A DNA stretch of 64,000 bases, from the IMG/VR virus record IMGVR_UViG_3300014204_000014, positions 12,851 to 76,850 of that record; one strand, 5' to 3'. Position numbers and translations under genes: made by a program. The notes under the pieces are model-generated. The model saw only the letters and a program-made list of their open reading frames with translations. It had not been told where the DNA came from and did not search any database. Below are positions 15,672 to 29,769 of the stretch, piece after piece. The stretch is from a virus (lineage: Duplodnaviria; Caudoviricetes). Position 1 is the stretch's first letter, and each line of letters opens with the position of its first letter.

Positions 15672-16790
15672 TTAATCAGCTCCTGCTTTGAAGTTATAAA
15701 TAGGTTTAACAAAATCAATAATATCTACTGTTTCTTTTATAGAGTTAATAATCATTTGAGTATTTTTATAAGCATCAGGCGCTTCATCAATAGTATTAAG
15801 ATTAGCCGTTGTAGTATAAATATCTCTCATTTGAGCTTCAAATATTTCTATTGATAAAAGTTCCTTAGCCTTAGTACGAGATAAAGCTCTACCAGCTCCG
15901 TGAGGAGCAGAATAATTCCATTTGCTATTTCCTTTACCCTTACAGATTGCTAAGCCGTCTCGCATATTAAATGGAATAATTACATACTCATTTTCTCGTG
16001 CTGGTGTAGCCCCTTTACGAATAATATTATCATCACCGATAAAATTATGTACTGATTCAATTTCTTGCATAGGAATTGAATTCTTCAAATATTCTGTGAT
16101 CCTGTTCATCATTTCATGTCGATTTAGTGATGCAAACTTTTGGGCAACCTTCAAATCCCCAATATAATCTTGTCCATCTTTTTCATTAGTTAATAGAAAT
16201 TCCAAATCTTTATATTCATTTCCAATAAAATACTTTTTCAAATTAGCCTTAGCAATTGATTGATAATAATTGGCGACTTTCAATCCAAAGTTTCTGCTTC
16301 CAGAATGAATAGTTACCCAATAATTATTTTCAGAATCTTTGCCAATCTCCACGAAGTGATTACCTGAACCAAGCGACCCGATAGACAAGAAAACTCGTAA
16401 TGATTCAATTCCTATATTCATACAAACATTTTCAATATCTTCAAGAAATGGATTCGATCTAAATCCGCTATTAACTGAAAATCCTGATGGGATATTTTTC
16501 TTTATGAAATTATCAAATTTTGGCAAGTCAATCTTTTCTATTGCAAACTTCCTAGATAGCATTCCGCAACCAATATCTACCCCAACTATATTAGGAATTA
16601 TATAATCATTCATTTTCATAGTAAATCCGATGCAAGAACCAGAGCCAGTGTGGCAATCCGGCATTATAGCAATATAAGTATTTTCAAAAGCAGGATGATT
16701 CAAAAAAGTTTGAATCTGCTCCTTTGTACTTTCATCAATCTCGTCAATCATAATATTTGCTGAATTGTATTTACCTTTCATTGTAATCAT
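15672..16790 (-). CDS. rtcB: RtcB-family RNA ligase
   Basis: MPDCHTG, VGVDIGCGM, GSLGSGNHFVE, HSGSRNFG, PFNMRDG, SAPHGAGR, DEAPDAYK. Confidence 0.95.
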   Translation of the reverse strand: MITMKGKYNSANIMIDEIDESTKEQIQTFLNHPAFENTYIAIMPDCHTGSGSCIGFTMKMNDYIIPNIVGVDIGCGMLSRKFAIEKIDLPKFDNFIKKNIPSGFSVNSGFRSNPFLEDIENVCMNIGIESLRVFLSIGSLGSGNHFVEIGKDSENNYWVTIHSGSRNFGLKVANYYQSIAKANLKKYFIGNEYKDLEFLLTNEKDGQDYIGDLKVAQKFASLNRHEMMNRITEYLKNSIPMQEIESVHNFIGDDNIIRKGATPARENEYVIIPFNMRDGLAICKGKGNSKWNYSAPHGAGRALSRTKAKELLSIEIFEAQMRDIYTTTANLNTIDEAPDAYKNTQMIINSIKETVDIIDFVKPIYNFKAGAD

Positions 16791-19935: not shown

Positions 19936-20507
19936 TACTCTATCCTCGATCCAGCCCTTTGCCACATTCCGATAGCGAAGGCCAGTTCCATTTTTGTAAT
20001 TTCCCCTCGATGGAACATTACAAAATACCTCTTCAGTTCTGAATAATTCATAAAACCTCCTTTACCAATATCTGTTTCTAGCAAGAGTATCGCTTTTATA
20101 TTCAGCAATTGCATTTGTTAAATTTTTATCTTCCTCGTCAATTAGAGCATGGCGAATCTTTTTGTTATCACATCTTGCTCTGAATTTGCATTTTGTATTG
20201 CAATATTTCCTGTACTCCTCCTTCCAAGACTCTACAACGCCATCTTCATTTCTCGTAAGCTTGAAAAAAGGCTTATGTCTAAATGTCCTGCTCATTTACT
20301 CCTCCTCAATGACCCCATTATTCAAAGCAAAATTCAAATCATCACAAAAACAGTTTTCATTTTTAAATCTATTTCTTAAATAATAGTATTCAGTAAATGT
20401 TTTTGTTACTAATATCCTATAGCCTAACTTTTCAATTCTGTTTTTTACTTTAATAAACGCTTCAAACCCATCACAATCAATCATCTAATCCTCCTTATAA
20501 AAATATA

Positions 20508-20581
20508 TGCGCCATGATGGACTTGAACCACCGACCTTTTGTGTATCAGACAACTGCTCTGACCAACTGAGCTAATGGCGC
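20508..20581 (-). tRNA. tRNA-Ile (GAT)
   Basis: GCGCCAT/ATGGCGC acceptor, TAGCTCAGTTGGTCAGAGC D arm, CT-GAT-AC anticodon loop, GGTTCAAGTCC T arm; no encoded CCA. Confidence 0.9.
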
Positions 20582-20591
20582 GAAAACATTT

Positions 20592-21545
20592 TTACCTAAC
20601 TAGCACTGCCACTTTTTCAATGGCTTCCTGTGCTTGCTTCAGAATCCTATTGCCATCAATAAAGCTGGCAAATCGCTTTTCCTGAAAAGTTTGGGTAAGG
20701 CGCAAAGGCTCAGCATGGGAAGCAAAATCCGCGAAAGCATTATATACTCCCCAAGCATCTCCAGCGAACTTTCTCAAATCCTGAGCCTCTGAATAAATGT
20801 CTTGAACCTGTTGGCGAAGGGTCAAGGCATTATTCTTTTGCCTATCGCTATCCTTTTCTTCAACAGGAAAAACAAATTCCAGAATATCATTAAATTTACT
20901 TTTATTGATTTTTGTCTGCTGATATTTTTCCGCTACTACATTCATCTCCTTCATATAATCGAAGGTTAAGCCAAGCGTCATTGCCGCATCTTTCTTTTTT
21001 CCTTCCACATCTCCCATATGGCGAATTGACCATGAGCGCTTTGCTTCTCGTAAAGCGAGGTTAAGCGTATTCTGGCACACCACGCGAGTGGGAGTAAGAG
21101 CGGCTGTTATAGCTTGGCTTCCATCGAAGCTGTTTGCGAAAACTAAATAAGGAACAACTTCCTCGCCTAAGATTTTCTCAGCAGGAAGATGCGCAAGAAT
21201 CCAAATCTTCCTACCATGATTTAATGATCCTGCTGATTCATAAGTAACTTTTGCTTTTTTACTTTTTACCAATTCATCAGTAAAAGCAAAGGCATCACGA
21301 TTCAAAACTATCTTATATTTTTCCGAAGTATCGCCAAGCACCATCCTATCGCTCGTCCTGACGTTTACTCGCATATCAGGAATTTCCGTTCCATCAGCGA
21401 GATAAACTTTTTCAGGAATTACGTCCCAGTCAAGCCCTGCTAGCTTTAGCGCCGTCAAGCTATCAGGTGCTTCCTGAACTACAGTACCAAGCCCATGCCA
21501 TGCGGGCTTCTTATACAAAAAACAAGTTTCGACATTAGCAGACAT
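20592..21545 (-). CDS. DUF932 / TIGR03299-like phage protein
   Basis: KPAWHGLGTVV, ALKLAGLDWDV, YESAGSLNHGRKIWILA, NSFDGS, TPTRVVCQNTL. Confidence 0.85.
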   Translation of the reverse strand: MSANVETCFLYKKPAWHGLGTVVQEAPDSLTALKLAGLDWDVIPEKVYLADGTEIPDMRVNVRTSDRMVLGDTSEKYKIVLNRDAFAFTDELVKSKKAKVTYESAGSLNHGRKIWILAHLPAEKILGEEVVPYLVFANSFDGSQAITAALTPTRVVCQNTLNLALREAKRSWSIRHMGDVEGKKKDAAMTLGLTFDYMKEMNVVAEKYQQTKINKSKFNDILEFVFPVEEKDSDRQKNNALTLRQQVQDIYSEAQDLRKFAGDAWGVYNAFADFASHAEPLRLTQTFQEKRFASFIDGNRILKQAQEAIEKVAVLVR

Positions 21546-21943
21546 TTGATTCTCCTCAAATAAAAATATTCAGGAAATACATCCTGAATCTACCTTCCTG
21601 AAGCAATAATGATTTTTTGTGCATTATCCTTAGTGAGAGGAATTCCAACTACGAATTTTTTATTATGGTTTTTAATATTTTCTACAATTGTTAAAGAGCT
21701 TCCAGGAACTTGCCTTAGTACATAATCATTAAAAATAATCTTGATCATTTCTTTGCCTCCTTACTCTTTTGCGAACAAATGCCCAAAGCAGGGCATCCTC
21801 GACATCCCATCAAATGCCTTCTTTCACAATCATTAACAATCTTTCTTTTCATCAAAACCTCCTTCAAAACCTGCCATCATCAGGCCGAGTAGGTAAATTC
21901 TCGGCGACCAGGGAAGCATTTAATCCTCCCTAGTTTCGGCTAT

Positions 21944-22180
21944 TTATACGAGATATTTTCGCGCTTCCCGAGTCCCGTACTGGACTCCATCAACGACTAA
22001 TTTTGCAACTCGGCGACTCCAAGTTTTGCTGTACACATTAACATAGGATATGATTTTCCATTCTGTACCCTCAATTTTTTCTTCCCATGATCCACGCTCA
22101 TCTACCCGCACATAAGGTTTTTTGTAGTTATTAGACTGATTAACAAGCTCCATCGTCCTCATCGCTACTTGCTTTGTCAT
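21944..22180 (-). CDS. Hypothetical early-region protein
   Basis: 78 aa ORF in the co-oriented early cluster. Confidence 0.5.
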   Translation of the reverse strand: MTKQVAMRTMELVNQSNNYKKPYVRVDERGSWEEKIEGTEWKIISYVNVYSKTWSRRVAKLVVDGVQYGTREARKYLV

Positions 22181-22245
22181 TGCACTTGCTCGTTACTGGC
22201 TACCAGCTCAGCCAAACCAAATAACCAAACCCATACGGGATGGCT

Positions 22246-22947
22246 TTAGTCAATAAAAGCATTCGCCTTTCTTCCTCCAACTTGCTTATTTAAGTTGAAG
22301 GAGCTTCCATCCATCTGCCCTCGAATATAACCTTGAGCGTCTTTTATATTGCTTTTGATTGAGCTATTTTTTAGATTTTTCTGATTCATGTGATTTTTTA
22401 ATTCCGAATCAATCACCATAAGAGCTGTGCAATTTACTACTTCCTCATTTTTGTGAATTTCTTTTAACCTTTTGCAAAGAGCTTCAGAAAATCCTGTTTT
22501 GTAGCTTTCCTTCATATCGTGGTCAATGTCCTTGGAAAGCCTTTCGATGCTTGCGAAAATATATTTCAGCATTTCCTTCGCAGAAATTACATTCGCTTCC
22601 CTGCCTACTATTTTTATTACTTGCTTTCCTTTCGTATCGTATTTATATGATCCGCGAGTTACCATTGTATACGAGGCGCAGTAATTCGCTTTTGTTACAT
22701 AATAGATTAAAAGTTTTTTCCATGCTCTCATCCTTCCTGCTTCGCAAAATTCCAATTCGTTTATTTCTGTTTTTGATTCTTCCTTCAAATCGCTGACTGT
22801 TAAATTGTACTGAAGCAAAAGCGCATGAGCTTTTTCCATTGCACTCATCGCCTCTGCCTCGTTGGGGCTTTCCGCTAAGGCGAAAAGTTTTCTGATCCTG
22901 TCGATGATCTTGTCACTAGCTTCCATCATAAACTCCTTTTCAAACAA
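22246..22947 (-). CDS. DUF2786-domain protein
   Basis: KIIDRIRKLFALAESPNEAEAMSAMEKAHALLLQYNL; C-terminal GQMDG. Confidence 0.85.
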   Translation of the reverse strand: MFEKEFMMEASDKIIDRIRKLFALAESPNEAEAMSAMEKAHALLLQYNLTVSDLKEESKTEINELEFCEAGRMRAWKKLLIYYVTKANYCASYTMVTRGSYKYDTKGKQVIKIVGREANVISAKEMLKYIFASIERLSKDIDHDMKESYKTGFSEALCKRLKEIHKNEEVVNCTALMVIDSELKNHMNQKNLKNSSIKSNIKDAQGYIRGQMDGSSFNLNKQVGGRKANAFID

Positions 22948-22950
22948 AAT

Positions 22951-23370
22951 TTAGTTGAGGAAAAAGCCTTTTATGTCTACCCAAGAGCCGTGGGCCAAGG
23001 GCTTTTCAAATTTATTTTCTGGCCCACATACCTGAGCTTCATTATTATATACAGTATGTCCGCTTTTCGGAGTAACCCAAAAAAGCACATTGCCAGTATG
23101 AATATCACAAATTGAAAAAGAATCGTAAAGTCTACCGACACCAGGACAATTATTTTTGAAGAAAATATAAACTTTGCTAGGATCGAATTTCTTACTTTTC
23201 ATAATGCTGATTACTTTAGCATACAGAGCCTTTGTTTTTCCAGCGAGAGCTGAATCTTTGCAGAACCAATCATACCAGCCAGCACTTATTTGCGTATCAG
23301 TATCAACTTCATCGTACTTGCCAGCCATAAAAGCTCCGATCTGCTCCAGTAAAGTTTTCTGCTCTTTCAT
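22951..23370 (-). CDS. Hypothetical early-region protein
   Basis: AAGGAG RBS before ATG at 23370; AGWYDWFCKD, YIFFKNNCP, LYDSFSIC motifs. Confidence 0.65.
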   Translation of the reverse strand: MKEQKTLLEQIGAFMAGKYDEVDTDTQISAGWYDWFCKDSALAGKTKALYAKVISIMKSKKFDPSKVYIFFKNNCPGVGRLYDSFSICDIHTGNVLFWVTPKSGHTVYNNEAQVCGPENKFEKPLAHGSWVDIKGFFLN

Positions 23371-23519
23371 CGTGGTCTCCTTCAAAACTAAAATCACTTT
23401 TCCTCCGAAGGGAAAAGATATGGCACGAATTGGACTTGGACCAATTGCTGGGCTATCATCCAGCGCCACCTGACCGTGCCGTGGAAAACCATTTTTAAAT
23501 TATTTTGAATTATACGCTT

Positions 23520-23975
23520 TTACAAAAGACTGTATTCCTTTTCCGTTACGATCCTGTACAGGCCGTCGACCATTGAAAAGTTGCAGAACGCTCCGAGCTT
23601 AGAAGCCTTCTTCCTGAGCTGGGTCATTTCCATCCTGCCTACGTGACTGGCTTTCCAAATCAGGTCTTCGTGCTTTGTACCTTCAGGGCCGATGATATCG
23701 AGGAGCTTCTTAGCGGCATTTTCCTTGGCCTTCTTTGCCTTCATGCAATTGGGGAAAACCATCTTGGTTGCGATGATGATGTCCGCGTCGCCAGAAGCGA
23801 GGCAGAACTGAATAACCTTTTCCCTTGCTTCCTGCTTTGCCTTTTTGCTTTCGACTTTTTCCTCAGGCGTGAGCGGAATTCTTTTCTTTCCCTTCTCCTT
23901 GACTTCCTTTTCCGCTTTCTTCTCTACCTTCACACCATTGTCCACGATCTTGCCATTCACATAAGCCTTGGCCAT
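23520..23975 (-). CDS. Lysine-rich hypothetical protein, first gene of the leftward early cluster
   Basis: GGAGG RBS at 23982-23986 before ATG 23975; higher GC than genome average. Confidence 0.7.
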   Translation of the reverse strand: MAKAYVNGKIVDNGVKVEKKAEKEVKEKGKKRIPLTPEEKVESKKAKQEAREKVIQFCLASGDADIIIATKMVFPNCMKAKKAKENAAKKLLDIIGPEGTKHEDLIWKASHVGRMEMTQLRKKASKLGAFCNFSMVDGLYRIVTEKEYSLL

Positions 23976-23995
23976 TTGAGCCCTCCACAAATAAC

Positions 23996-24056
23996 TTTCC
24001 GATTTCGTAGCAATTTTCAGCTACTCATCAGCTTCCATAAAAGGAAGGATCGGAAA
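23996..24056 (-). ncRNA. Type III hammerhead ribozyme
   Basis: Minus strand TTTCCGA-TC-CTTCC-TTTTAT-GGAAG-CTGATGA-GTAGC-TGAAAATT-GCTAC-GAAA-TCGGAAA: intact core and three perfectly paired stems; predicted cut after AUC, between 24048 and 24047. Confidence 0.93.
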
Positions 24057-24277
24057 CTTTTTTAAATTGTTTTTGGGTGGGCAAAGTCTTTATATAAACT
24101 AATGAAGCTACTCAAGCACTTCCGTGACTTGAGGACCTTGCAGAAACTGAACGCCCCTGCAACGATCGCGGGCTAGCTCCCGCCTGCAACCGATATTTTT
24201 AATTTCTTTATACTTTATTATAAGGTATTGCAAGGAAAAATAAAGCCCTATATAAATGATAATTCACATACTTCATA

Positions 24278-24343
24278 TAAATCTATATAATACAAGTAAT
24301 TAACTAAGTATAGTAAATCTATATCTTATAAGTAATTAACTAA
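24278..24343. repeat. Two imperfect 30-bp direct repeats (36-bp period) in a very AT-rich tract
   Basis: TAAATCTATAT-N5-AAGTAATTAACTAA at 24278-24307 and 24314-24343. Confidence 0.8.
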
Positions 24344-24399
24344 ATATGCAATAATTCGTCAATAAATCGTTCATTTACGATATAAATTTACGCAATAAA

Positions 24400-25629
24400 T
24401 TATGATTTGTTAAGAAAAGCCTTTATATCGTGCTCCTTCTTAGCGTTCAATAGATAGGCGCTCCACGTTGGGCAATTCGTTCCTAGGTGGGATAAATACA
24501 CATGATCAATAAAAGATTTCAAAAAGCTTACATATTCATATAGCCATTTTTCAATTCCGCAGTCAAGCCAATAAGTACAATTAGAATCTTCATTCATCAA
24601 ATCATTAGCATATTTTTTGTACCAACTAACTAATGATTTTATTCTACTCCAAAAAGCAAAGCCGTCAGTACGCTCATCAATAAATTCCTTAAAAATAATT
24701 CTTACTTCTTTAGGAATTGAAAGAAAAATTTTTTCTGCTGATACTTCGCGCATAGGGAAAGCAGGACCATCTAGACAAGCTAAAAATAATGAGCCATTTG
24801 AATTATAATTAAATAGCCATGAGTCTATATTTTTAGGGAGCCAATTTTTATCAGATGGATTATTACTAGGATCAAACCATGTGATATAATTCTTAGCTGC
24901 TTTTATAATAACTTCTTCAATGCTGTTCCAGCTTCCTTGGCAATTCAAGATTATTTCTTTTGCACTATTTATACTATGGTCTTTATTCTTAGCAATAAAT
25001 TCATCTGCTTGCCTAAATGTTTTTAGGAATGATCCTTTATATATTGCTGTTAGCTTAAAACAGAATTCTTTCATGCCTTTTGTATAGCTTCCATCTTTGT
25101 TTAATCTATTTCTAAATAGCTTTGAACCATCTGGTAATTTTATTTGCAAAAGTTTATCCATTATTTGCGTAGCATTTTTGTTACAATTGTTTTTTATGGC
25201 AGTGGGTTTTTTTGATTCAATCGGCTTATTGGTAATTAGACTATTCATATCTATACCTCCTGAATCTCGTAGCCATTCTATTATATTCTCCCTAATAGCA
25301 AATCCTACCATTTTGCCATCAATAGTAGGCACAACTATTTTTATTAATGGAAATTTCTCTATAGGTAAAGTTTTGCTAGTTTTCCCTGATAAATCTTCAA
25401 ATATTTTACTGATGGTTTGATTAGAACGAAATGGTAAAGTAGGAAAATCCTCAAATACTTTGTGATATTCGACCCAATAGTAATGCTCTTTATCATTTTT
25501 TGTCTTTATTATTGTTTGATTTCCTGAATGGGCAAAATAGACTAGCCATTCAAGAATTTTAGAATGTATTATATTTAATCCTAAATAGACTAATTTTTCT
25601 TGATTGAATCCATCTATGGCTACTTTCAT
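24400..25629 (-). CDS. Putative replication initiator / winged-helix DNA-binding protein
   Basis: N-terminus (IDGFNQEKLVYLGLNIIHSKILEWLVYF ... YYWVEYHKVFEDFP) resembles phage initiator N-terminal domains as recalled; flanked by repeats on both sides. Confidence 0.5.
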   Translation of the reverse strand: MKVAIDGFNQEKLVYLGLNIIHSKILEWLVYFAHSGNQTIIKTKNDKEHYYWVEYHKVFEDFPTLPFRSNQTISKIFEDLSGKTSKTLPIEKFPLIKIVVPTIDGKMVGFAIRENIIEWLRDSGGIDMNSLITNKPIESKKPTAIKNNCNKNATQIMDKLLQIKLPDGSKLFRNRLNKDGSYTKGMKEFCFKLTAIYKGSFLKTFRQADEFIAKNKDHSINSAKEIILNCQGSWNSIEEVIIKAAKNYITWFDPSNNPSDKNWLPKNIDSWLFNYNSNGSLFLACLDGPAFPMREVSAEKIFLSIPKEVRIIFKEFIDERTDGFAFWSRIKSLVSWYKKYANDLMNEDSNCTYWLDCGIEKWLYEYVSFLKSFIDHVYLSHLGTNCPTWSAYLLNAKKEHDIKAFLNKS

Positions 25630-25715
25630 ACTAACTCCTTTTTATAGCAAATACTTTTCAAAACCGAAGGTTTATAATATCTTTAGATATTTATTAAATA
25701 AGAATAGTATATATA

Positions 25716-25761
25716 GCAACTATAAAAAGTAGCGTTGCGCAACTATAAAAAGTAGCGTTGC
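25716..25761. repeat. Perfect 2 x 23-bp tandem repeat, each unit with GCAAC/GTTGC inverted ends
   Basis: GCAACTATAAAAAGTAGCGTTGC at 25716-25738 and 25739-25761. Confidence 0.9.
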
Positions 25762-25821
25762 TTATAAACATTGGGTGATATTCACTTTGCTTCATATTTG
25801 CCCTTATAATGATTGGATAAA

Positions 25822-25908
25822 ATAAAAAGCTCCTGATCGCGCCGTCACTCGCTTTCAGGAGCCAGGATTCTAAAAATCCTTTCTGATTATGACGGGCATC
25901 AGAAAGGA
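25822..25908 (-). terminator. Terminator hairpin with upstream hairpin and complementary loops (possible attenuator)
   Basis: GCTCCTGA/TCAGGAGC stem followed by a T tract on the minus strand; second stem TCCTTTCTGAT/ATCAGAAAGGA; loops carry CCGTCA and TGACGG. Confidence 0.7.
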
Positions 25909-25961
25909 CTCTCTATACTTATGATTATATAGTATTTGTAAGAAAAAATAAAGTCTACTAA

Positions 25962-26483
25962 TTACTTTTCTTTTAGTAGCTTTGTTTCATTTGTAGGAGA
26001 ATTAATTTTTGAGAAATCTGAAATACGTGGCAATTTTATATTGTATTTCATTTTATCATTTCCATCTTCTAGCATTTTATTATAAGTTTCTTTCCTAGTT
26101 TCTAATTCTTTCAACTCCCTTGATAGAATTTCTGTATATTGCTTTTTATTCAAAAACATCCATAATCCTCTTAGTGAATCCTTTGGTCGGTGATAAGCAA
26201 AAGGATGATAATTTTCCGTACTGATTTCTTTTATATCTTTCATGTGCATACGAATATAAAAAATTGATAAATCCCATTTCGATCCTGAAGCTCTTAGATT
26301 TTCTTTAAAGCCTTCTTTCTTATAATATTCAATAATTACTTTACATAATCTATGAATATTAGGGAGTGGCAAATCTTTTTTCTTTTCCATGAGATACAAA
26401 ATATCTACTATCATTTGACAGCGGGCATGTCGTAAAGGACTTTCTGAGTCTTTTTGATGTGGCATAAATGAAAACCTACTCAT
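25962..26483 (-). CDS. Hypothetical protein, overlapping partner of the ParB-like gene
   Basis: 173 aa, start overlaps the ParB-like stop. Confidence 0.65.
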   Translation of the reverse strand: MSRFSFMPHQKDSESPLRHARCQMIVDILYLMEKKKDLPLPNIHRLCKVIIEYYKKEGFKENLRASGSKWDLSIFYIRMHMKDIKEISTENYHPFAYHRPKDSLRGLWMFLNKKQYTEILSRELKELETRKETYNKMLEDGNDKMKYNIKLPRISDFSKINSPTNETKLLKEK

Positions 26484-27324
26484 TTTTCCCTACCTCCATT
26501 TCTTTCATTAGACTTTTTATTTGTTCGTGTATTCTATGGATAAATTGAATTGCCTCGGGTGAAAACATACCTTCTTTTGCTAGTATAGTTGCAGTAGAAA
26601 GAATATTTTTGAATTCCTTTACATCATGAATATATTCAGAAACAGCTTTTGGGTATTCATTAGGAAGCTTCTTATTTCTTTTGGTCTCTTTTTCTTTTTC
26701 TCCTTTTGCAAATCGCTTATCATGTAATTCTTTATCCGCCGCTCCCAGTGTTTTCTTTCCTTTATGGATATCATCAATAATACCTTTATCTAGTTCTCCA
26801 TCATCTACAGCTTTCTTTATCCGTTTAGCTTTTTGTACTGATGATCCAGATACTCCGAACTGCTTGCCGGCTTCATTTGCTGAATCAAATTTGTCTTCCG
26901 TGCGAACTTTTTTAAAAGGTTTCACGGATTTTACAAATTTTCCATTTGCAGTCTTTTGGTCTTTTACTTGTTTAGATTTTATTTTGTTATAATGTTCCCT
27001 TGCTTGCTTTTCAAACTCTGGAAGCATTTCAGTTGCAAGCAAGGCTCGCTGGCTTTCCGTTAGATGCCTGCGATTTATATTTTCTGCAATAACAAAATCT
27101 AGCGGATCACTTCCAGAATATTCTTCAGTAATGGGTTCGATGCCTAATTCTTGACAAGCTCGATAGCGGTTTTTCCCATCTAGAATTTTTCCTTCAAATA
27201 AAATAATGGGATTTATCTGCCCATTTTTTCTAATGCTCTCTACAAGATCATTAAATTCTGTTCCTTGTATTGCGGGAAAATAGTTAGCCAATCGGTGTCC
27301 CTCCAATTCAATAATATTTTTCAT
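26476..27324 (-). CDS. ParB/Spo0J N-terminal-like domain protein with HTH
   Basis: LVESIRKNGQINPIILFEGKILDGKNRYRAC, AENINRRHLTESQRA, HTH AGKQFGVSGSSVQKAKRI. Confidence 0.85.
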   Translation of the reverse strand: MKNIIELEGHRLANYFPAIQGTEFNDLVESIRKNGQINPIILFEGKILDGKNRYRACQELGIEPITEEYSGSDPLDFVIAENINRRHLTESQRALLATEMLPEFEKQAREHYNKIKSKQVKDQKTANGKFVKSVKPFKKVRTEDKFDSANEAGKQFGVSGSSVQKAKRIKKAVDDGELDKGIIDDIHKGKKTLGAADKELHDKRFAKGEKEKETKRNKKLPNEYPKAVSEYIHDVKEFKNILSTATILAKEGMFSPEAIQFIHRIHEQIKSLMKEMEVGKNE

Positions 27325-27352
27325 TCTAACTCCTTTGTTTGTTGCATCTATA

Positions 27353-27419
27353 TATATTATATACTTTCTACCAATTTATTTTTCATAATAAAAATTCGTC
27401 TCTCTAAGTATATAATATA
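27353..27419. promoter_or_regulatory. Back-to-back divergent promoters at the strand switch of the genome
   Basis: AGTATATAATATA on minus (27353-27365) and plus (27407-27419), each upstream of an RBS and ATG. Confidence 0.75.
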
Positions 27420-27434
27420 GATAAGAGGTACAAA

Positions 27435-27599
27435 ATGGATGAGAAACAAGTAAATGATGTAGCTAACAAGATTATGAAAGTAGGGAAAATCCTGACATTA
27501 TTGATTACTATTCCCTTTATTGGCTTTATTATCTTCGGCACTGCAGGGCTAATTATCGGAATTATCTTAGGTGTTGCTCTCTCCTTGGGTACAAAATGA
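27435..27599 (+). CDS. Small membrane protein (54 aa)
   Basis: Below ORF track cut-off; MDEKQVNDVANKIMKVGKILTLLITIPFIGFIIFGTAGLIIGIILGVALSLGTK; GAGG RBS; long hydrophobic stretch with GxxxG spacing. Confidence 0.65.
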   Translation: MDEKQVNDVANKIMKVGKILTLLITIPFIGFIIFGTAGLIIGIILGVALSLGTK

Positions 27600-27783
27600 C
27601 TGAAGGCACAATGCTAAAGTTAAACAATACCGATGCTAAGGCAAGAGTGATAAAAATCCTTTCAAATCAGGCTTTTATTATTGAGTGTGATGATAGAAGA
27701 TTATCATTTACTCGTTTAGTTGATCCTAATAATATCTCAGATGGATTGGCTTTTTCTTCATGGGCAAATATTTTAAGGAGAAA

Positions 27784-27815
27784 TTGAAAAAACCATTTGC
27801 TCAGTATATAATATA
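27784..27815 (+). promoter_or_regulatory. Sigma70-like promoter
   Basis: TTGAAA-17 nt-TATAAT, embedded in the AGTATATAATATA motif. Confidence 0.75.
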
Positions 27816-27819
27816 TATG

Positions 27820-28015
27820 GAGGCTTTGGAAATGGTGGCAAGTAATGAGAATGACGATTCTCGTGAGGGCCGAAATTCCTAGCAGGACTAAATACCTGCT
27901 CATTGCCTTTTAAAACGTTGTGGCTAGGTCGTATGACTAATGCCGAAATCGGAACGCTTTGCGTAGGCCGAAAATAGCAAGCCGGAGACAAACGTAACCG
28001 GCACTTTATTTTTTA
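27820..28015 (+). ncRNA. Putative stand-alone structured RNA, class unknown
   Basis: Promoter upstream, GCCGG/CCGGC hairpin plus T-rich tract downstream, several hairpins, GC-richer than flanks, no credible plus-strand ORF. Confidence 0.5.
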
Positions 28016-28072: not shown

Positions 28073-29158
28073 TTGATTAAATCAATCCAATTACAGAATT
28101 ATCAATCCCATAAAAAAACTATTATAGAATTCTCTCCAGGAATAAACTGTATTATTGGCCCATCTGATCAAGGAAAAACAGCAATACTTCGCGCGCTATA
28201 TTGGACTGTATATAATCGCCCTTCAGGATTAGCATATATTTCACATTGGAATAGGGACAAAGATGGCAAGCCAATAAAATCTACTTATGTAAAAGTTGAA
28301 AATGATTCTAATATAATTGAACGTAGGCGAGGCAAGGTAAAAAGATCAGATGATTATGAAGAATTTAATGGCTATGTAATAAATGATTCTGAGTATCTTG
28401 AAGCGATAGGCCAAGACGTTCCTGATGAAGTAAATAAGTTATTCAATTTAGACTCGGTAAATATCCAAAAACAAATGGATGCCCCTTTCCTATTATCGGA
28501 AAGTGCTGGAGAAGTAGCTAGATTTTTTAATCAAATTATTAGATTGGATTTGATTGATAAAGTATTGTCAAAAGCAGAATCAAAAAAGCGCGAAATGAAT
28601 AAGGACAAAATAAGATTAGAAAATGAATCTGAAAATATTGCTAAGGAAATATTAGAATATGACTGGATAGATGAAGCGGAAAGTTTAGCAAATAAAATAA
28701 GTAAGGCTGAAGATAGAGTAAATGAAAATAATGGGATTAGGGATAATTTGATCCTTACAGTTACTAAAAATAAAGTTCTAATTGACGAAATTTCTTTACA
28801 GGAGGAAATTCTATCCGCCGCTCCTTTGGTTAATAAGATAAAAATAGTACAGGAATCGCTTGAACAGAATAGTTCAAAATATAAGCGATTACAAAATCTG
28901 TCTAGCCAGTGGCAAGAACAAAATGATATTATTAAGGGAGTGGCGGATTTTTCTTCTATTGATTTGCTAATTGAAAAAATAGATTCTTTTAGGCGAAGTA
29001 TTTTCGATAAGGTAAAAGTAAAAGAAAATTTGGAAAATCTTACAGAAGAGTATAAAATAAAGTATGCTGGAGTTGAAGTGGAAATTGAAAAAATAAGTTT
29101 GATGGAAAAAGAATTACCTCAAATATGTCCGTACTGTGGTAATAAAATAAAGGAGTGA
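28073..29158 (+). CDS. SbcC/Rad50/gp46-like ATPase, N-terminal half
   Basis: IQLQNYQSH, Walker A GPSDQGKT, Q-loop NIQKQMD, coiled coil, ends at CPYCG zinc hook; no Walker B. Confidence 0.88.
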   Translation: MIKSIQLQNYQSHKKTIIEFSPGINCIIGPSDQGKTAILRALYWTVYNRPSGLAYISHWNRDKDGKPIKSTYVKVENDSNIIERRRGKVKRSDDYEEFNGYVINDSEYLEAIGQDVPDEVNKLFNLDSVNIQKQMDAPFLLSESAGEVARFFNQIIRLDLIDKVLSKAESKKREMNKDKIRLENESENIAKEILEYDWIDEAESLANKISKAEDRVNENNGIRDNLILTVTKNKVLIDEISLQEEILSAAPLVNKIKIVQESLEQNSSKYKRLQNLSSQWQEQNDIIKGVADFSSIDLLIEKIDSFRRSIFDKVKVKENLENLTEEYKIKYAGVEVEIEKISLMEKELPQICPYCGNKIKE

Positions 29159-29769
29159 TGATGGTAGAGTTTAAAGACTTTCAAAAAATTGCTAGGTATT
29201 CAAGAGAAGTTATAGTAACAGAAAAAATTGATGGTACAAATGCTCAGATTTTTATTGCAAATAAGGACTCCCTTCCTGCTAGTGATTATAACGATCCAAT
29301 TATTGCAAGTAAAGATAATTTAATTATGTGTGCTGGTTCACGAAATAGATTTATTTCTATTGAGCATGATAATTATGGATTTGCAAAATGGGTAAACGAA
29401 AATGCTGATGAATTATTCCATTTGGGTCCAGGAAGGCATTTCGGAGAATGGTGGGGAAGTGGAATACAGAGAAAATACGATCAGACAGAAAAGCATTGGA
29501 GCTTATTTAATGTTCATAAATACTTGGATAATTATGATAATGAAAAGCCCACCTGTCCTAAGTGCTGTAGAGTAGTACCTATTTTATGGCGAGGGAATTT
29601 TGATGATTTTAATGCTAGGGAAATAATGGATAAGTTACAATTTGATGGTTCTAGTGCTGCGCCTTTCTACATGAAGCCTGAAGGAATAGTAATTTTTCAT
29701 TCAGCTAGTGGATCATTATTCAAGAAAACATTTGAAAATGATTCTACAGGGAAAGGTGAAAATGCCTAA
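29155..29769 (+). CDS. RNA ligase, Rnl2-like nucleotidyltransferase domain
   Basis: Motif I TEKIDGTNA, GSRNR, motif III FGEWWG, motif IV KPEGIVI. Confidence 0.8.
   Translation: MMMVEFKDFQKIARYSREVIVTEKIDGTNAQIFIANKDSLPASDYNDPIIASKDNLIMCAGSRNRFISIEHDNYGFAKWVNENADELFHLGPGRHFGEWWGSGIQRKYDQTEKHWSLFNVHKYLDNYDNEKPTCPKCCRVVPILWRGNFDDFNAREIMDKLQFDGSSAAPFYMKPEGIVIFHSASGSLFKKTFENDSTGKGENA

Follow-up and report, generated by a model that had tools for sequence, protein, structure and literature searches.

What does a self-cleaving ribozyme do when it stands directly ahead of the ribosome binding site of a phage gene? The question arises from a type III hammerhead at positions 24056..23996 (minus strand) of the window, by which we mean the whole 64,000-nt stretch of viral DNA analysed (C1:12851-76850 of genome G000); the genome scanned is the complete 76,850-bp viral genome from which the window is taken, an IMG/VR record with terminal repeats. 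The reading we favour, with a probability of roughly 0.6, is that a leftward phage transcription unit encodes a canonical, active-type type III hammerhead in its 5' leader, where it trims the message. It builds on features that are observed, namely the motif and its statistical significance, its covariation, its synteny with a related phage and a recurrent promoter-like motif.

On the minus strand the element is laid out as UUUCCGAU-C / CUUCC-UUUUAU-GGAAG-CUGAUGA-GUAGC-UGAAAAUU-GCUAC-GAA-AUCGGAAA, with the slash at the predicted cut (Table 1). The CUGAUGA/GAAA core is complete (C3 U4 G5 A6 N7 G8 A9, G12 A13 A14, the pair A15.1-U16.1, and C17 at the H17 position), the core-adjacent pairs C1.1-G2.1 and G10.1-C11.1 are Watson-Crick, and stems I, II and III, of 5, 5 and 8 bp with A15.1-U16.1 counted in stem III, are all perfect. 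Stems I and II are capped by loops and stem III is open, which is the topology of type III, and only the type III descriptor matches. The MFE and centroid structures of a 73-nt segment both reproduce the exact three-way junction (-22.2 kcal/mol, z -4.47, equalled in 0/200 shuffles), and this fold is retained in a 266-nt context. Loop I (6 nt) and loop II (8 nt) of the window element could pair through UUUU/AAAA, and no Watson-Crick pairing between the two loops is consistent across the relatives compared. Exactly one type III match is present in the whole 76,850-bp genome, against a chance expectation of 0.003 matches per genome at stems of at least 4/4/4 bp (300 Markov shuffles) and no match in 300 Markov shuffles at stems of at least 5/5/6 bp; a generic type I/II/III scan detected no type I or II hammerhead elsewhere in the genome.

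Table 1. Features at and around the hammerhead, in window coordinates; signs after positions give the strand.
Feature	Position	Strand	Basis or remark
Promoter-like motif CTTTATTTTT-N13-TATAAT	24217..24245	minus	TATAAT at 24222-24217
Copies of the promoter-like motif	28004+, 41829+, 49902+, 25953-, 24245-		genome motif scan
Predicted ~163-nt 5' leader	24049..24210	minus	folds; released by cut
Stem III, 5' strand	24056-24049	minus	sequence
C17	24048	minus	hammerhead numbering
Predicted self-cleavage site	24047..24048	minus	C17 position; cut 3' of C24048
Stem I hairpin	24047-24032	minus	sequence and fold
CUGAUGA	24031-24025	minus	sequence
Stem II hairpin, loop UGAAAAUU	24024-24007	minus	sequence and fold
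GAA	24006-24004	minus	sequence
Stem III, 3' strand	24003-23996	minus	sequence
Shine-Dalgarno GGAGGG	23986-23981	minus	9 nt past ribozyme, 5 nt before ATG
ATG of 151-aa ORF	23975-23973	minus	sequence
151-aa ORF (P0001)	23520..23975	minus	served by ribozyme leader
RtcB gene	15672-16790	minus	same strand as ribozyme

The element escaped Rfam at the gathering level, a permissive scan of 301 nt and a search of genomes with RF00008 (clan CL00010), none of which gave a match. When the 73-nt element alone is compared with RF00008, model positions 1-54 are aligned at 37.7 bits (E 1.7e-07), short of the gathering cut-off of 48.5 bits, which is an annotation convention and not a biochemical criterion; the wider scans remained blank because of their filters and this high cut-off. 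The element is a clear RF00008 match though under the curated cut-off, and the hammerhead model search that the first-pass annotation had proposed thus yields the full-length alignment but not a score above that threshold. With the family it has in common the full core, the three-way junction, capped stems I and II and an open stem III, and its loop II UGAAAAUU is similar to UGAaAu, the loop of the Rfam consensus. It differs in the context of the cleavage site, GAUC compared with the common GUC, and in its setting, a dsDNA phage and not the circular RNA replicons in which most type III hammerheads occur (PMC13725137). The chemistry of hammerhead cleavage, which leaves 2',3'-cyclic phosphate and 5'-OH ends, is established (PMC8782182); C24048 is accordingly the residue predicted to carry the cyclic phosphate and C24047 the predicted 5'-OH end of the message.

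Pattern scans of IMG/VR returned more than 119 contigs with CUGAUGA-stem II-UGAAAAUU-stem II-GAAA, and since this pattern demanded loop II, conservation of that loop is not independent evidence. Closure of the matches gave 96 copies of type I and 12 of type III (74 and 10 distinct sequences, respectively). Five type III copies that aligned cleanly were made into a covariance model (R1), which recovered 11 type III elements, nine of them distinct, in viral contigs. Across the nine, in an alignment fitted to the model made from five of them, 95.8% of cells are paired and 13/16 pairs exhibit double-sided changes, values of pairing and compensatory change that 0/500 shuffles match; the covariation score is 0.77, compared with 0.12 or less in slid-partner controls. 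One relative with the same layout and loop II (L040) scores 52.6 bits against RF00008 and is the only one to pass the Rfam cut-off, several others being no less canonical. Sequence, statistics and covariation together identify the element as a genuine hammerhead, with cleavage itself a prediction. The first-pass annotation had called a canonical type III hammerhead on the minus strand, with stems of 5/5/8 bp including A15.1-U16.1 and a 5' end at 24047 just upstream of a ribosome binding site. The core, fold, single genome match and covariation bear out the call, the sequence confirms the stems, C17 at 24048 is consistent with the 5' end, and the GGAGGG sequence occupies the expected place.

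Other searches led away from the element. In GenBank phages, the 4-kb region had no match and the element itself gave chance matches only, and a pattern with stem III fixed (CCGATC...GAAATCGG) returned mostly chance matches. The sole match in a genome contig (L132, an Acidimicrobiaceae MAG) is a different hammerhead with stem II as the common part, and most metagenome matches are likewise different hammerheads with only stem II in common. Two lake-type viral contigs (L002:4467-4520 and L003:3060-3117) carry a type I hammerhead that is distinct from the window element, shares its stem II (GUAGC/GCUAC) but has another loop, and is located between a stop codon and the RBS of the next gene. Several hammerhead-bearing phage contigs are rich in other self-cleaving or associated RNAs: L022:1-1041 contains two Hatchet, a RAGATH-6 and a RAGATH-14, L007:984-1054 a Pistol, and L065:6740-6812 a RAGATH-1 hammerhead on a contig that also has 13 Rfam tRNA matches.

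The ORFs from about 27991 down to 390 are all encoded on the minus strand and those from 28073 onward all on the plus strand, which places the ribozyme 4 kb inside the leftward arm and not where the arm begins. Before it come at least four minus-strand ORFs (27991..24400), the last being a 409-aa ORF (24400-25629) behind which it occupies a 424-nt non-coding gap, 344 nt past the previous stop. As no terminator was found between these ORFs and the ribozyme, read-through RNA would be cut too. The element had initially been assigned to the leader of the 'first early gene' of a GC-richer leftward cluster. A leader remains a reasonable description, given the promoter-like motif ~160 nt upstream, whereas 'first early gene' is unproven, with the arm beginning near 28000 and at least four ORFs and no detected terminator in between. 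The GC-richer cluster is indeed present, as a block at 20400-24200 with GC of 0.39-0.47 compared with ~0.30-0.34 elsewhere, and the ribozyme is found at its very edge, where the block starts in the leftward sense. This island comprises the ribozyme leader, two ORFans and the DUF2786 and DUF932 genes, ends beside a tRNA-Ile (20508-20581), and is probably a module imported from a higher-GC phage.

The promoter-like motif CTTTATTTTT-N12-15-TATAAT occurs in five copies in the genome, compared with 0.03 in shuffles; all five are co-oriented with their gene arm, and the motif is usually followed by (T)AGTAT. Such recurrence probably marks a phage-specific promoter class, and transcription would presumably start near 24210 from the copy ~160 nt upstream of the ribozyme. 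A sigma-70 consensus scan found sites in the ribozyme region to be no commoner than expected by chance. Just upstream of the motif, at 24278-24347, are two tandem 34-nt direct repeats (88% identical, 36-nt spacing) that look like operators or iterons; a strong plus-strand sigma-70-like site, TTCACA-17-TATAAT (11/12), overlaps them at 24263-24291.

These elements can be assembled into a course of events. Transcripts would probably begin at the promoter-like motif, although a fraction may arise by read-through from the 409-aa gene. The RNA would then fold into the three-way junction co-transcriptionally and cut itself between C24048 and C24047, which would detach the ~163-nt three-hairpin leader, together with any upstream cistron, as an RNA ending in a 2',3'-cyclic phosphate. 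The remaining message would have a 5'-OH, its first 16 nt would form the stem I hairpin, and the leader left after the ribozyme would be short and fixed, with the Shine-Dalgarno sequence after 9 nt and the ATG of the 151-aa ORF after 20 nt. The downstream genes would likely gain a 5' end that is defined, independent of context and probably more stable; the presumed steps of the scheme are the use of the promoter, the cut in vivo and its consequence for stability or translation. The effect of a 5'-OH on stability is host-dependent: in Bacillus, the glmS ribozyme yields a 5'-OH product that RNase J1 goes on to degrade.

The closest precedent is the HHphage hammerhead of the haloviruses HF1/HF2 (Perreault et al. 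2011, PMC3088659), also found in a tailed dsDNA virus. HHphage precedes the first ORF of an early multi-gene transcript by 13 nt, compared with the 20 nt to the ATG here, and a mapped 5' end lies within 3 nt of its cleavage site (PMC3088659). It is, however, a core/structure variant that needs very high Mg2+, whereas the core of the window element is fully canonical, and its viruses infect archaea, whereas the window element is next to a bacterial-type Shine-Dalgarno sequence. The clustered prophage hammerheads, which flank genes, resemble the window element in their phage context, in lying on the gene strand and in their position between or ahead of cistrons, and the role proposed for them is the processing of transcripts into messages of differing stability or translation (Perreault et al. 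2011, PMC3088659; review by Weinberg et al., PMC6765202). A similar order of parts is found in RiboJ, a synthetic insulator derived from sTRSV (e.g. PMC7536230), in which a type III hammerhead between promoter and RBS removes a variable 5' leader and leaves a fixed, hairpin-started 5' UTR, as is predicted for the window element. RiboJ is engineered, with an added 3' hairpin that exposes the RBS, whereas the window element is natural, and the analogy would make it a natural counterpart of that insulator.

The type I copies give a measure of which part of this scheme is general. They start at the upstream stop codon (median 1 nt) with the next start ~35 nt later, and 60/96 fall within 40 nt compared with 27% of random positions; because of this stop- and start-adjacent placement they act as intercistronic spacers. 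The window copy, in contrast, is single, of type III, 344 nt past a stop, and has a promoter-like motif of its own. As no more than ~6 nt of the ribozyme stay with the message in the 74 distinct type I copies, a 5' hairpin cap is not the common function of the class, and the feature common to the class is therefore the cut itself.

More specific information is provided by a related phage, L001 (contig IMGVR_UViG_3300014205_000494, also listed as L130), which has 13 proteins in common with the genome at 37-70% identity and carries two type III copies whose core, stem II and loop II are identical to those of the window element. Copy A is located at the syntenic head of the DUF932/DUF2786 module; its stems II and III are identical to those in the window, its stem I is fully compensated, and the ribozyme-to-Shine-Dalgarno spacer is conserved, with a gene behind it that is non-homologous to the 151-aa ORF. 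In its loops, AAUU/AAUU could pair. Copy B has stem I of the window element and a different, compensated stem III, and the two copies bracket a 1.8-kb block of small genes. The distance from ribozyme to ATG is 20 nt in the window, 22 nt in copy A and 18 nt in copy B. The 151-aa protein, which has no Pfam or PHROG match, offers no route to orthologous leaders because it has no IMG/VR relative. No hammerhead lies within 6 kb in five or six further-removed relatives (DUF932 identity 41-48%), which makes the element dispensable for the DUF932/DUF2786 module. The unit would appear to be a ribozyme-plus-RBS cassette of patchy distribution that has been kept catalytically intact.

Would such a unit need a function at all? 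A mobile ribozyme-plus-RBS cassette could be spread by phage recombination with little or no benefit, in agreement with its presence in the window phage and L001 and absence from the more distant relatives, its position at the edge of the GC-richer, probably imported block, the mosaic pattern in which stems are common to the three copies, and the unrelated genes before which it stands. We nevertheless regard a mere passenger as unlikely, as the perfect core and the strictly compensatory changes argue for continued selection on catalytic competence, and the spacing to the ATG is constant (18-22 nt).

The cut may instead matter for what lies upstream of it, with the ribozyme serving to make the 3' end of a functional ~163-nt three-hairpin RNA that the cyclic phosphate protects, and with any effect on the downstream message secondary. 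The predicted leader has three GC-rich hairpins (~24193-24100) followed by an A-rich tail with GCCCACCCAAA (~24082-24072); at an MFE of -44.7 kcal/mol it is more structured than shuffles (z -2.9), and it starts right behind the promoter-like motif. In L001, a tRNA-like acceptor/T-arm minihelix stands ahead of copy A and a strong hairpin ahead of copy B. However, L001 shows no conservation of the leader sequence, for which Rfam has no matching family either, and between the last hairpin and the cut lie ~50 A-rich nt without structure; it is the ribozyme and the spacer to the Shine-Dalgarno sequence that are conserved between the phages while the upstream RNA is not. A small RNA as the purpose of the ribozyme is on this evidence improbable.

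Some further details of these upstream regions may be recorded. The leader hairpins at 24100-24193 (minus strand) contain GTTGCAGG twice and an inverted TTGCAG...CTGCAA, and the segment 24106-24123 bears a weak likeness to a portion of the ribozyme (GGAAG..UGAGUAGCU). That hairpin 3 of the leader (repeat D3) could be the decayed remnant of a second hammerhead was considered and set aside as weakly supported, 73/2000 shuffles giving an equal local alignment. The L001 minihelix, GGCCG...CCGGGGUUCGAUUCCCCGG-CGGCC, lies at L001:5750-5800 (minus strand), ~45 nt upstream of copy A; ARAGORN called no tRNA there, and a tRNA fragment of the attP type or a signal for processing are possible explanations.

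A more elaborate proposal is that of a portable 'gene-head' cassette, hammerhead plus 18-22-nt spacer, which recombines between phages and genes while releasing a small RNA and unmasking the RBS. Both the mosaic in which the three copies share stems and their position before unrelated ORFans would then be explained, and, if true, the cassette would do two jobs here, release of a three-hairpin small RNA with a cyclic phosphate and unmasking of the RBS. We consider the whole of it decidedly unlikely.

Unmasking can also be judged by itself, as a translation switch in which an anti-Shine-Dalgarno sequence, GCCCACC, pairs with GGAGGGC in an extension of stem III until cleavage frees the RBS. This outer helix is present in both the MFE and the centroid structure of the 266-nt fold, the unpaired probability of the Shine-Dalgarno sequence rises in the window from 0.30 uncleaved to 0.56 cleaved, and the released tail would rebind at just -9.8 kcal/mol net. 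The same calculation gives 0.34 to 0.35 for L001 copy A, which has a competing fold, and 0.23 to 0.23 for copy B, which is without masking, and a 6-bp purine/pyrimidine match may easily arise by chance. Unmasking of the RBS as a conserved feature was thus rejected, the change being found in the window only and neither L001 copy exhibiting it, and a switch of this kind is very unlikely to be what the ribozyme is for.

The proposal that RtcB ligates or circularises the released cleavage products is hardly credible: the phage does encode RtcB on the strand of the ribozyme, as the first-pass annotation had reported, and the enzyme joins 2',3'-cP or 3'-P ends to 5'-OH ends (PMC8782182), but two sites or a multimeric transcript would be needed, and with one self-cleaving ribozyme in the genome no RNA has both a 5'-OH and a cyclic phosphate, so that RtcB could only rejoin the cut. 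The earlier suggestion that the cyclic-phosphate RNA is an RtcB substrate likewise loses ground at the level of the class, as RtcB is present in 0/39 hammerhead-bearing viral records searched (16 of these at least 90% complete), a class-level test only since these are mostly type I copies from other phage groups. Spliced or circular products of prophage hammerhead arrays were sought by Perreault et al. and none were found (PMC3088659). The phage also carries an Rnl-type RNA ligase (PF09414) at 29155-29769 and four tRNA genes, and RtcB, this ligase and the tRNAs together fit tRNA repair better than a link to the ribozyme.

Trimming of the message to a defined 5' end thus remains the reading we prefer. 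Standard Rfam annotation misses elements of this kind, and the element is otherwise one further example of the class described in 2011. The function of hammerheads in bacterial and phage genomes is still regarded as open (PMC6765202), and for that question the locus would provide a clean test case, in which a canonical ribozyme has a promoter-like motif 160 nt upstream and a strong Shine-Dalgarno sequence 9 nt downstream, and for which the related phage L001 supplies two natural stem-swapped variants for testing.
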